Assembly: GCA_964355275.1 (NCBI GenBank)
Contig: CAYHCB010000003.1
Location: 7,052 to 71,051, forward strand
Reading direction: 5' to 3'
DNA: 64,000 nt
Origin: an uncultured Gammaproteobacteria bacterium
Lineage (GTDB): Bacteria > Patescibacteriota > Patescibacteriia > Patescibacteriales > UBA12465
The position numbers were made by a program, and so were the translations under genes. The number at the start of each line of letters is the position of its first letter. The stretch's first letter is position 1. This document shows, in pieces, positions 43,080 to 45,881 of this stretch. The notes beneath the pieces are model-generated. The model was not told the DNA's origin, made no database searches, and saw only the letters and a program-made list of their open reading frames with translations.

Positions 43080-43931
43080 TTATATTCTAAAGAAATTTTT
43101 AGCAGTATTAGTGGTTATTTCGGCTACCCGCTCTAACTTTAAATTTTTAATTTTAGCGATTCGTTCAGCAACATATTGGACTAAAACTGGCTCATTACGA
43201 TGACCTCTATACGGTTCGGGGGTCATATAAGGTGAGTCCGTTTCGATCATGATTTTTTCAATTGGAACCTTCCTAATTAAATCATCCCAAGTTTGGCTAA
43301 AAGTAATTAAACCAGTAAAAGAAATAAGCAGGCCTAAAGAAAAATATTTCCAGGCTAAATCTTCGTCTCCAGAAAAACAATGAATAACCCCCCAAGGTTT
43401 ATCATTAGGAATCAAATTAGCATAAACTTTTTTGAAATCTTGGAGTACGGCTAAGAGATCGTCATGAGCTTGTCGACAATGAATTATCACCGGTAAATCA
43501 AGTTGTCTCGCTAAAAGTAGTTGTTGAACCATTACCTGTTGTTGTTTTTGTTTTATATCCCGAGCGTCTTTAGTTGGGTCAATATGATAATAATCGAGTC
43601 CAATCTCTCCAATTGCTACTACTTTTTCAAATTTAGCTAATTTTTCATAATTATCATAATAAAAATCTTCCGCCCTAGTTATAAAATTATAATTTCCATC
43701 ATCGTCATGATTTTCCGCGCGTAATTCCTCTAAATGAATCGGGTGCAAACCAACGGCAGCATAAACACCTTTCTGATATTTATTAGCATAATTTAAAGCT
43801 CTGGTAGAAGTTTTATACTCCGAGCCGACTAAAACCATCCAGGTATCATTATCTAGAGCGCGGCGAATAACCTCATCGGCATCATCTTTAAAGTCAGCAA
43901 AATTTATATGGGCATGAGTATCTATAAACAT
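43080..43931 (-). CDS. tatD: TatD-family metal-dependent hydrolase
   Basis: 283 aa. MFIDTHAHINF, AIGEIGLDYY, PVIIHCRQAHDD, GVIHCFSG, and ETDSPYMTP. Confidence 0.9.
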   Translation of the reverse strand: MFIDTHAHINFADFKDDADEVIRRALDNDTWMVLVGSEYKTSTRALNYANKYQKGVYAAVGLHPIHLEELRAENHDDDGNYNFITRAEDFYYDNYEKLAKFEKVVAIGEIGLDYYHIDPTKDARDIKQKQQQVMVQQLLLARQLDLPVIIHCRQAHDDLLAVLQDFKKVYANLIPNDKPWGVIHCFSGDEDLAWKYFSLGLLISFTGLITFSQTWDDLIRKVPIEKIMIETDSPYMTPEPYRGHRNEPVLVQYVAERIAKIKNLKLERVAEITTNTAKNFFRI

Positions 43932-43942
43932 AGATTAAACTT

Positions 43943-43969
43943 CAAAAAACACGCGCAGCGTGTTTTTTA
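43943..43969 (-). terminator. Hairpin plus U-tract immediately downstream of the Cys-rich sORF and 12 nt upstream of the tatD ATG
   Basis: The minus strand reads AAAAAACACGC-tgc-GCGTGTTTTTT, a GC-rich 6-bp stem extended by A:U pairs with a T6 tail. Confidence 0.6.
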
Positions 43970-43983
43970 ATTTTGACAAATTC

Positions 43984-44157
43984 TTAAGCTTGCGTTTCAT
44001 TTTCTTTCTTAACCTCTTGAGTGGTGGTAGTTGATTCCGGCTTGGCGGAAATTGTTTCATCGGTTTTTTTCTCCGAGCAGCAACAACCTTTTTCTTCACA
44101 ATTACACTTTTTACCAAATAAACCTTTTAACCAATTACACATTTTACAATTACACAT
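43984..44157 (-). CDS. Cys-rich small protein (57 aa), not in the ORF track; could alternatively be a non-coding leader or sRNA
   Basis: Hand translation from the ATG at 44157: MCNCKMCNWLKGLFGKKCNCEEKGCCCSEKKTDETISAKPESTTTTQEVKKENETQA, stop TAA at 43986..43984. Nine Cys fall in the first 27 residues. It is flanked by its own promoter (44190..44217) and hairpin/U-tract (43943..43969). Confidence 0.45.
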   Translation of the reverse strand: MCNCKMCNWLKGLFGKKCNCEEKGCCCSEKKTDETISAKPESTTTTQEVKKENETQA

Positions 44158-44189
44158 AAGTTACAATTTTTAATTATTACCTTTTTATT

Positions 44190-44217
44190 ATTGTATCATG
44201 CTAAGATATTATGTCAA
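44190..44217 (-). promoter_or_regulatory. Near-consensus extended -10 promoter (TTGACA-N16-TGaTACAAT)
   Basis: On the minus strand, TTGACA lies at 44217..44212 and TACAAT at 44195..44190, preceded by TGa. It is about 33 nt upstream of the sORF ATG and downstream of the terminator that closes the atp operon. Confidence 0.5.
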
Positions 44218-44269
44218 TTTATAAAAATCTAAAAAACCTTATTTTTTTAGCTTATAATAGCTAATATTA

Positions 44270-44298
44270 AAATAAAAGCTGCCACAACTGTGACAGCT
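44270..44298 (-). terminator. Rho-independent terminator closing the atp / beta-CA-like operon
   Basis: The minus strand reads AGCTGTCAC-agtt-GTGGCAGCT, a 9-bp stem with one G:U pair, followed by TTTTATTTT. It lies about 20 nt after the stop at 44318. Confidence 0.6.
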
Positions 44299-44317
44299 CT
44301 TTAGGAATTATTATGCC

Positions 44318-45412
44318 TTATTCATCTTCAGGAATGGGCATAATTTTACGAGTGTGTTCGTCAACTACCACCGATAGGTATCTAGCTTTAGCGACAAGTT
44401 CAGGGAAATTTTCGGCCAATATTTTTTTTACATAACGACGGAAAAAATTGGCTTTTTCTTTAGCTCTATTTTCATCGACACCCTCTTCTTTAAAAGGAGC
44501 AGACGATAGAACCAAGAAACCATCAGCACCAATTCTACCAGATTTCATGTTATCGGCAATAATAGAAATTGCTTTAATAATCGGTCCAGATAAATCAGGA
44601 CTGTAGGGGCCAATAATTAAAGCGGTGTTTGGTTCATGCAACCAATCAAATCCGCGACCAACACCTAAAATCCATTCACGGTGTTGCATGTCAATCGGCT
44701 TTCGTCCCGACTCCTTAACCTCTTTAATATGAGAAATATTACCCTGAATAAGAGGAAGTAAATCATTCATCACTTCTTCGTTCATGTCAGGATATAAATC
44801 ATGGATAATACCAAGTAAGTAATCATTTTTGTCAGACATTTTATCTGAACAATAAATAATTCCTGAACCAGTAGGGTCTTGGGGGTGGAATACAAGTGAA
44901 TCGGTATCAGTTTCTAATCCAACCACAATCGGAAAAACAACTTTGTTATTTTTACCAAACAAACGGTTAACCTGGTGGTAAAAATTTACTGTGTACTTAA
45001 AAGCGGCCTCATTATCATAATTAAAACCAGCACAACCACGATGATCATCGCCCTTAGAATAGTGGTAAGTAACTAAAATTAAAGAATTTCGCCCTTTGCT
45101 TACTCCATATTTTACCCAAGAAGTTAAGTCTTCACCTAACAACGGCCAGCCTAGATCAAAAGCGCCACCAATATTACGATAAGGTAAAATAATTCCTGGA
45201 GGGGTATTAGTTACTAAAGGAATATGAATTCTACCGTCCATACACTTGAAGGCACAAATTTCTGTCGGATGTTTAACACGATAAATTTGTCTGGCTAAAC
45301 GAGTGTTGATAAAATTAGTGGCATGTCTTTTATTGACTTCAAACAACCACTCGATTTTTTGTTCAATGCTTCTCTCTTTCATTTCTTCGTTTTTTGTTAA
45401 TGACCTGTTCAT
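44318..45412 (-). CDS. Beta-carbonic-anhydrase-like protein (CxDxR / HxxC zinc-site motifs) with a long C-terminal extension
   Basis: 364 aa. AFKCMDGRIHIP (C57-x-D59-x-R61), PYRNIGGAF and LILVTYHYSKGDDHRGCAGF (H124-x-x-C127) parallel the beta-CA motifs CSDSR, RNAGN and GHxxCG. The last ~190 aa have no recognised motif. It lies 28 nt downstream of atpC on the same strand. Confidence 0.55.
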   Translation of the reverse strand: MNRSLTKNEEMKERSIEQKIEWLFEVNKRHATNFINTRLARQIYRVKHPTEICAFKCMDGRIHIPLVTNTPPGIILPYRNIGGAFDLGWPLLGEDLTSWVKYGVSKGRNSLILVTYHYSKGDDHRGCAGFNYDNEAAFKYTVNFYHQVNRLFGKNNKVVFPIVVGLETDTDSLVFHPQDPTGSGIIYCSDKMSDKNDYLLGIIHDLYPDMNEEVMNDLLPLIQGNISHIKEVKESGRKPIDMQHREWILGVGRGFDWLHEPNTALIIGPYSPDLSGPIIKAISIIADNMKSGRIGADGFLVLSSAPFKEEGVDENRAKEKANFFRRYVKKILAENFPELVAKARYLSVVVDEHTRKIMPIPEDE

Positions 45413-45440: not shown

Positions 45441-45881
45441 TTATTTTCCACTTCTTAATCTGCGCCCCTTATTTAAAGCCCTAATTCTGGATAATTCCTT
45501 CTCAAGTTGAGCCGCGATATTTACAAACTGAACATTATCAGCACTCTTAGTAGTTTTTCTTAATTTTTCAGCTCGTAATTTAGCTTCCTCTACCATCGCG
45601 TCATCAATTTCTTCGGCTCGCTGAGCGGTATCTGCTAAAATAACAATCTTACCACTTAAAACCTCTATAAAACCACCAGAAACAACAATAAATTCCAAAC
45701 TACCGTCGGTTTTTTTAACCTCAATAACTCCAGAATGCAAAATAGAAACTAAAGGAATATGATTAGGAAGAACCGTAATTTCTCCAGATTTAGTGGGAAC
45801 GGTTACTCTTAAAATATTCTCTTTTAAAATTATCTGCTCTGGTGTTACTATTTCAAATTTTATAGTCTTTTTTGAAGACAT
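45441..45881 (-). CDS. atpC: F1 ATP synthase epsilon subunit
   Basis: 146 aa. IKFEIVTPEQIILKE...GEITVLPNHIPLVSIL...GGFIEV, then a C-terminal helical hairpin. Confidence 0.9.
   Translation of the reverse strand: MSSKKTIKFEIVTPEQIILKENILRVTVPTKSGEITVLPNHIPLVSILHSGVIEVKKTDGSLEFIVVSGGFIEVLSGKIVILADTAQRAEEIDDAMVEEAKLRAEKLRKTTKSADNVQFVNIAAQLEKELSRIRALNKGRRLRSGK

Follow-up and report, generated by a model that had tools for sequence, protein, structure and literature searches.

We report a small open reading frame (sORF) that lies directly in front of tatD on the minus strand of a 64,000-nucleotide DNA stretch from contig CAYHCB010000003.1 (the window, by which the whole stretch analysed is meant) and encodes a Cys-rich microprotein. 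The sORF (43984..44157, minus strand; MCNCKMCNWLKGLFGKKCNCEEKGCCCSEKKTDETISAKPESTTTTQEVKKENETQA) starts at the ATG at 44157, ends with the TAA at 43986..43984 and comprises 57 codons plus the stop, as the original prediction, made from the letters of the window, had proposed. Comparison with its relatives indicates that the sORF is almost certainly a real and conserved protein-coding gene. Together with tatD it probably forms one transcription unit, in which a promoter, the sORF, a leaky terminator and tatD follow one another. The explanation favoured overall, with moderate confidence, is that this leaky-terminator unit yields both TatD and a peptide that acts through thiolate-based metal or redox chemistry. 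The thiolate function, taken separately, is a more tentative proposal, slightly more apt to prove wrong than right.

The coding status of the sORF was assessed by comparison of 12 distinct orthologous loci. Over codons 1-17 the proportion of synonymous differences (pS) was 0.69 as against a nonsynonymous proportion (pN) of 0.03, and 12 of the 18 variable sites fell at third codon positions. The two shifted frames gave pS of ~0.07-0.11, pN of ~0.13 and 14-20 stop codons. No locus had a broken frame, not even among those identified by DNA pattern without regard to gene calling, and all changes of tail length in the relatives were in frame. The codon-aware conservation analysis that had been proposed for this locus thus revealed no frame disruption. 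Codons 2-5 of the N-terminal MCNCK extension vary synonymously where the extension is present; therefore, it is translated in those members. A 60-aa ORF starting with TTG (43935..44117) does lie in another frame, as had been noted, but was rejected as a gene since that frame is closed in relatives. No consistent in-frame conservation of opposite-strand ORFs was found across the relatives.

At the DNA level the window carries the repeat that had been noticed earlier, with ATGTGTAATTG occurring twice, 15 nt apart, and TGTAATTGT once more. The TGTAATTG repeat is erased in relatives through synonymous TGT/TGC and AAT/AAC swaps, and at the codons where the window has it the relatives carry TGCAACTGCAAA, TGTAACTCTAAA or TGCAACTGTAAA. 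Because the repeat is not conserved, we consider it a by-product of the peptide motif M-C-N-C/W, written in this genome in T-ending codons.

A first search of 5.8 billion proteins returned 20 small relatives of 48-70 aa, which differ in their tails but have a near-invariant N-terminal part of 31 residues. When 1.84 billion representatives were searched exhaustively with a HMMER profile, just 8 clusters at 50% identity emerged, and with a profile built from more distant members the family came to ~51 clusters at 90% identity, all of 44-70 aa. The 90% cluster of the 50-aa member P0006 also holds P0149 (391 aa, 'predicted O-methyltransferase YrrM'), which is a clustering artefact, since the sequence of P0149 is unrelated. 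DNA pattern scans confirmed 4 loci in genome contigs and 7 in metagenome contigs; two, L004 (57..872, from a Planctomycetota metagenome-assembled genome, MAG) and L026 (1486..2142, from a soil contig), are unrelated proteins that share the motif NWLKGLFG(G)K, which in L004 stands at the extreme C-terminus (…MSFFDKLLNWLKGLFGGKK, followed by the stop). This suggests that NWLKGLFG(G)K may be a generic short amphipathic module and not unique to the microprotein family. The exact peptide of the window had no copy in a collection of 15 billion proteins, and the source names shown for its relatives (Candidatus Falkowbacteria, Patescibacteria group MAGs) were only 'hypothetical protein'.

The microprotein matched no family in Pfam, NCBIfam, PADLOC and PHROG scans, and none of all 51 members matched a Pfam-A family at E <= 1, metallothionein families included. 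A PDB sequence profile search with the microprotein returned nothing at E <= 10. In a literature search no Cys-rich small protein described in Patescibacteria or linked to tatD was found, and only motif chemistry was retrieved. Judged by its sequence, the microprotein is a new and narrow family, outside any described family and restricted to one lineage, the Falkowbacteria-like Patescibacteria.

The peptide of the window begins with MCNCKMCNWLKGLFGKKCNCEEKGCCCSEKK, followed by the tail. The family consensus consists of an optional MCNCK, then M[CS]NW[LF]K[GSK]LFG.K, 1-3 Cys blocks, (E/D)KK and a variable tail. In the window, with all parts on the minus strand, the extension MCNCK (C-x-C; 44143..44157) is a feature confined to one subclade of the family; members such as P0025, P0026, L035 and L038 lack MCNCK, their first residue corresponding to Met6. 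It is followed by the family signature M-C-N-W-L-K-G-L-F-G-K-K (residues 6-17, 44107..44142), a predicted helix, and by the Cys block CNCEEKGCCC (residues 18-27, 44077..44106), which includes the family-invariant Cys-Cys pair. Variants of the Cys block in the family are C.C....CC, CHCEGGCC, CCEKKGCCEEKGCC and CCCHKGEDCCHKGEDCCHH. The variable tail (residues 32-57, 43987..44064), predicted to be disordered, is acidic and rich in Thr, Pro, Val and Ala; across the family the tails are rich in Glu, Lys, Thr, Val, Ala and Pro. Several tails, such as those of P0012, P0015 and P0018, carry short imperfect repeats (EETVAP / VAPVAP / EEKK), and entire repeats are inserted in some relative to others. 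This suggests that the tail may evolve through the expansion of repeats, with its composition constrained rather than its sequence.

Over the 51 sequences W9 and the C26/C27 pair are invariant, and K11, L13, F14, K17 and C20 are conserved in at least 90%. The first 27 residues of the window peptide hold 8 Cys (not 9, as had been counted), arranged in CNC, C-x-x-C and CCC motifs. For comparison, Cys makes up 0.69% of the residues encoded by the 54 long ORFs of the window, where no 27-aa stretch contains more than 5; the Cys density of the microprotein is ~40-fold above that of the local proteome. The Cys pattern, the conservation of which had been named as a check on the original prediction, held for the CC pair and for C20 but not in number, as the Cys count ranges across the family from 2 (P0176/L038) to 8 (window) with a median of 6. 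His is present in 21 of the 51 members, often beside Cys, as in the CCHKGED repeats of L035, and absent from the window peptide. The family has a median net charge of -2, reaching down to -10; the window peptide is +1 overall, with a tail of -3. AlphaFold2, given the 51-sequence alignment, predicted a helix at residues 4-14 with a predicted local distance difference test (pLDDT) score of ~73, whereas residues 32-57 scored below 50 and the mean was 57.

In every locus examined, tatD is found immediately downstream of the sORF. The tatD gene of the window (43080..43931, minus strand) encodes a 283-aa TatD-family metal-dependent nuclease/hydrolase (Pfam TatD_DNase, E = 4.3e-75). In the closer clade of relatives, the upstream neighbour is atpC directly, a carbonic anhydrase (CA)-like gene (window), a 541-aa gene or a divergent Oxidored_q6 operon. 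In the distant clade, which was reached starting from TatD, the gene order is dnaK-dnaJ-sORF-tatD-atpI-atpB; such TatD-started look-ups in more distant genomes revealed a diverged sORF member upstream in 2/2. Downstream of tatD stands bacA in the atpC clade or atpI in the dnaJ clade. Since both flanks change while the pair stays, sORF-tatD is the only adjacency that survives rearrangement. The pair lies between dnaJ and atpI/atpB, at the start of the atp operon, in L035, L037 and L038, and after atpC, at its end, in the window and in L005-L032. The pair and the atp operon thus remain neighbours across both clades, in opposite order.

Upstream of the sORF, a -35 hexamer TTGACA (44212..44217, minus strand) and an extended -10 element TGaTACAAT (44190..44198, minus strand) are separated by 16 nt, exactly as had been claimed (TTGACA-N16-TGaTACAAT at 44217..44190). 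Between 41.5 and 48 kb no other site matches a promoter as well (11/12 plus TG). The 64-kb window of 33% GC holds 6 sites of at least 11/12 as compared to 5.2 +/- 2.2 in shuffles, and only one site, that of the sORF, with at least 11/12 plus TG, against 0.28 expected. The match alone is therefore within chance, and just the added TG sets the site apart. The promoter is credible because it is conserved in position and form in 18/18 distinct loci: each has TTGAC[A/T] at the same place, the 16-nt spacer, itself of variable sequence, TGn with the TG at -15/-14, and a -10-like hexamer (TAnnnT; TAnAAT in most).

The distance from the -10 element to the ATG is 32-38 nt in all loci read; in the window it is 32 nt and A/T-rich. 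The putative 5' untranslated region (UTR) of ~26 nt (44158..44183, minus strand) is A/U-rich and lacks a Shine-Dalgarno sequence close to the ATG. Such an absence is normal here, as it is shared by all 54 long ORFs in the window. Within the closer clade, AAGGTAATAATTAAA in the 5' UTR is conserved. Throughout the window, A/T-rich sequence stands before the start codons of the 54 long ORFs, and in several genes a TATAAT-like box lies 25-35 nt before the ATG, which suggests that short leaders may be usual in this 33% GC genome. Ten relatives (L002, L003, L009, L014, L016, L024, L027, L028, L031 and L032) carry a 12-bp perfect palindrome, TGTCAATTGACA, the right half of which is the -35 hexamer, and in its place the window has ATAAATTGACAT at 44212..44223; in the relatives the palindrome could be an operator for a dimeric regulator.

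Between the sORF and tatD lies a terminator-like hairpin (43942..43970, minus strand), with an A-tract, the stem ACACGC/GCGTGT around a 3-nt loop (ACACGC-TGC-GCGTGT, 43963..43949) and a T-run. As in an intrinsic (Rho-independent) terminator, the GC-rich stem-loop is directly followed by the U-run. A 20-nt spacer separates the stop codon of the sORF from the stem; across loci the stop is 15-21 nt before the GC stem. The 12-nt gap from the T-run to the tatD start (GAAGTTTAATCT, 43932..43943, minus strand) leaves no space for a separate promoter. The hairpin and T-run were indeed found 12 nt before the tatD ATG (43970..43942; ATG at 43931), and the claim that tatD must be read through the hairpin gained support, as in each of the 16 distinct loci only 12-24 nt lie between the end of the T-run and the ATG. 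A separate tatD promoter within or after the sORF was considered and rejected, as the tail is variable and just 12-24 nt follow the T-run.

The hairpin of the window has a folding energy of -11.6 kcal/mol (z = -3.2), and those across the loci tested ranged from -11 to -15 kcal/mol (z of -2.9 to -5.7). In the stem alignment 96% of cells were paired, and three sequences show the one compensatory change, from A-U to G-C; when the register of the same alignment was slid, pairing was far worse. The distant clade has stems ACGCGA/TCGCGT, GCGCGA/TCGCGT or CGCG/CGCG. The closer-clade loci that cover the region all have the stem ACACGC/GCGTGT unchanged (23/23), and the loop varies. This invariance contrasts with the variable loops and with the near-saturated synonymous sites of the adjacent gene, and the sequence constraint on the stem exceeds the usual need of a terminator. 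The stem may also act through its sequence, perhaps as a site of processing or binding.

In the mechanism that we propose, an extended -10 promoter of the sigma-70 type would drive a two-gene transcription unit consisting of a short leader without Shine-Dalgarno sequence, the microprotein gene and tatD. Transcription would start near 44183. Most transcripts would end at the U-run, yielding an abundant monocistronic mRNA for the microprotein, and the fraction of polymerases that reads through would be the only source of tatD mRNA. The terminator is expected to be moderately weak because its GC stem is just 6 bp, and such leakiness would set a high ratio of microprotein to TatD and a lower dose of tatD. 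The peptide itself would combine an N-terminal C-x-C-x-x-C (in the subclade), the helix NWLKGLFGKK, a C-x-C...CC(C) thiolate block and a disordered acidic tail. Thiolate chemistry, either metal or redox, is suggested by the Cys density together with the invariance of the CC pair and the His often found nearby. The peptide would thus act via its Cys thiolates, joined by His in many relatives, and would bind Zn, Ni, Fe or Cu or serve as a redox-active thiol peptide. In peptide studies CC motifs, including the Hpn-derived EEGCCHGHHE, bound Zn(II) and Ni(II) tighter than Cys-His or His-His motifs (PMC10221980). TatD enzymes are nucleases that depend on metal and have been linked to oxidative DNA damage repair (PMC4176340, PMC10085689). 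Because its pairing with tatD is invariant, the peptide is plausibly tied to TatD function, and it may serve or control this metal-dependent nuclease; it is a reasonable hypothesis that the peptide delivers or buffers metal, or senses redox state, in connection with TatD.

Several points weigh against this explanation. The Cys number is not conserved, falling from 8 in the window to 2 in P0176, and conservation is highest in a helix without Cys, NW[LF]K.LFG.K. The essential activity may therefore reside in the helix, through partner or membrane binding, with the CC pair as the sole obligatory thiol site. Invariant aromatic residues (W, F) are atypical of metallothioneins, and no sequence match to any metallothionein or other family was obtained in Pfam, NCBIfam or the PDB profile search. 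The proposal of a metallothionein-like or redox-active microprotein made in the original prediction was borne out as far as a protein is encoded (pS 0.69, pN 0.03, ORF intact); such a function is plausible, but no metallothionein model matched. AlphaFold2 predicted no compact fold for the microprotein (mean pLDDT 57). The linkage with tatD could come from shared transcription alone, and the promoter match by itself is statistically unremarkable in an AT-rich window. The transcription start, the termination efficiency and the read-through are all inferred from sequence.

The strongest of the rival explanations, unlikely in our estimate and yet well ahead of the others, holds that the microprotein is a dedicated protein partner of TatD, be it an inhibitor or 'immunity' factor, a membrane tether or a chaperone, acting through the NW[LF]K.LFG.K helix and the acidic tail. 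The Cys residues would then be structural or sensing and would not serve bulk metal storage, and the leaky terminator would keep the partner in excess. That sORF-tatD is the sole adjacency kept when both flanks are rearranged speaks for a partner, as do the better conservation of the helix motif than of the Cys count, the order promoter-sORF-terminator-tatD, which predicts an excess of peptide over enzyme, and the acidic tail of most members (family median net charge -2, to -10). However, co-transcription alone can account for the linkage, and the window peptide is nearly neutral (+1 overall, tail -3) and would be a poor DNA mimic. TatD homologues of other bacteria are not known to need a partner, which also counts against a partner here. 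A bolder reading, which we likewise rate as unlikely, is that the microprotein is an obligate, over-produced partner of TatD, namely a thiolate metallochaperone or a redox/metal-sensing switch that would load, tether (by the NWLKGLFGKK helix) or gate the enzyme. The microprotein would then be the first accessory factor described as dedicated to TatD, a universally conserved family. It would be an invention specific to this lineage of ultra-small symbionts, which depend on nucleic-acid salvage, and the terminator would hard-wire the ratio of peptide to enzyme.

The second reading of the original prediction, that of a Cys-codon-rich leader peptide or attenuator, fared poorly and is now very doubtful. 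According to it the sORF would be a cis-acting leader or upstream ORF, the Cys-tRNA-sensitive translation of which controls terminator read-through or tatD translation, and the peptide as such would be irrelevant. A Cys-codon-rich sORF directly upstream of a terminator-like hairpin and of tatD, which has no promoter of its own, is what such a leader would look like. However, strong purifying selection acts on the non-Cys residues W9, L13, F14 and K17, which are as conserved as Cys, and just 2 Cys codons remain in P0176/L038. The spacing between Cys codons and hairpin is not kept, as the tail varies in length and sequence, and with a stop 15-21 nt before the GC stem a terminating ribosome leaves the stem uncovered. 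No antiterminator pairing was predicted, the hairpin dominating both the minimum free energy and the centroid folds. No Rfam leader rose above noise: with Rfam 15 at a permissive E-value the best match at the sORF locus was Trp_leader on the opposite strand, at 19.4 bits as against a gathering threshold of 41 (E = 0.53), and at the gathering threshold only three tRNAs were found in the whole window.

That the sORF encodes the precursor of a ribosomally synthesised and post-translationally modified peptide, of a bacteriocin or of a secreted peptide is more improbable still. The peptide is indeed small, rich in Cys and Thr, and has a conserved N-terminal and a hypervariable C-terminal part, but the Cys residues sit in the conserved N-terminal part and not in the variable 'core'. 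Moreover, no maturase, protease or exporter/transporter gene is adjacent in any neighbourhood, where atp genes, dnaJ, tatD and bacA are found instead, and there were no PADLOC, PHROG or Pfam matches. The third reading of the original prediction, a non-coding small RNA (sRNA) or a DNA/RNA array of TGTAATTG repeats for protein binding, drew on the threefold occurrence of the repeat in the window and on a promoter and terminator like those of an sRNA gene, and can practically be dismissed because the repeats are synonymously erased in relatives (which have TGCAACTGCAAA, TGTAACTCTAAA and similar), the protein is conserved although its synonymous sites are nearly saturated, the transcript folds no better than shuffles (z = +1.19) and no Rfam match was found.

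Small proteins are systematically missed in genome annotation, and the relatives of this one carry just the name 'hypothetical protein'. The comparative evidence is unusually clean: the codon positions carry a coding signature, the promoter is conserved, and so is the terminator, with a compensatory change in its stem. The family is confined to one lineage of the Candidate Phyla Radiation and coupled to tatD, and both the cellular role and the regulation of TatD are poorly understood. A small-protein family of this kind is not surprising in principle, but this one may include the first accessory factor of TatD. Should the peptide bind metal or be a partner of TatD, it would provide a handle on metal economy or nucleic-acid processing in unculturable organisms, and it is small enough for chemical synthesis, which makes the hypothesis directly testable. 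If it is merely another Cys-rich microprotein, it is still a well-supported new family that would merit a model in Pfam or NCBIfam.

Directly upstream of the sORF unit in the window lies a 364-aa ORF (44318..45412, minus strand) that is weakly carbonic-anhydrase-like: its match to PF20686 (CsoSCA_cat) is 24.2 bits, just above the cut-off, and a beta-CA match is also weak. The terminator preceding the sORF promoter, a 12-bp hairpin with a T-run (44301..44274, minus strand), belongs to this ORF and not to the atp operon, to which it had been assigned. On the upstream side, beyond the 364-aa ORF, lies atpC (45441..45881). In most relatives atpC is directly upstream of the sORF, with no CA-like gene between, and the genes inserted upstream of the sORF in L016 and L032 are not clearly homologous to the CA-like gene of the window. 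In L005-L007 (1542..2090) a gene of 175-182 aa with an ORF6N domain (PF10543) lies between atpG and atpD; it is absent in L009-L014.

Among known systems, the leader attenuators of trp and his operons share with the sORF a short ORF rich in the codons of one amino acid ahead of a terminator and a gene. In contrast to these leaders, the sORF peptide is under strong selection, no antiterminator is predicted and the distance from codons to terminator is variable. In a leader attenuator selection would act on the regulatory codons only, whereas here pN is 0.03 over codons 1-17, which include W, L, K, G, L, F and G.

Hpn and Hpn-like of H. pylori and the metal-binding tails of SlyD and HypB, rich in Cys and His, serve nickel storage or delivery, and EEKGCC (window) and CCHKGED (L035) resemble, by eye only, the EEGCC motif of Hpn, a likeness that is not a statistical match. 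Hpn is small and abundantly expressed; the microprotein is small as well, and its abundance is inferred from sequence. Unlike the His-rich Hpn, the window peptide has no His, and only 21 of the 51 members have any. There is no homology to Hpn, and no urease or hydrogenase maturation genes are linked in the loci seen.

In appearance, and perhaps in action, the microprotein is like a metallothionein or an Hpn-type thiolate peptide. The bacterial metallothioneins (SmtA/BmtA, Pfam Metallothio_Pro; mycobacterial MymT) resemble the microprotein in size (~50-60 aa), in an occasional recruitment of His and, as far as the window peptide goes, in being very Cys-dense with C-x-C, C-x-x-C and C-C motifs, of which only the CC pair is invariant across the family; no stable fold is predicted for the microprotein in its metal-free model. 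The microprotein has no detectable relation to their entries in Pfam or PDB. Metallothioneins have few or no aromatic residues, whereas the microprotein has an invariant W9 and, in at least 90% of members, F14 in its conserved helix. It also differs from them in that Cys drops to 2 in some members, in its long acidic disordered tail, and in a gene that is fixed before tatD and not beside a metal-sensor or efflux gene.

The rpsU-dnaG-rpoD operon of E. coli is the textbook operon with an internal attenuating terminator. The sORF unit differs from this type in that its first gene encodes an uncharacterised microprotein and in that the hairpin is unusually close (12 nt) to the downstream start codon. 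The two would be alike in their order, in which a strong promoter is followed by a first gene that is short and highly expressed, an intrinsic terminator and then a promoterless gene for a low-abundance enzyme.

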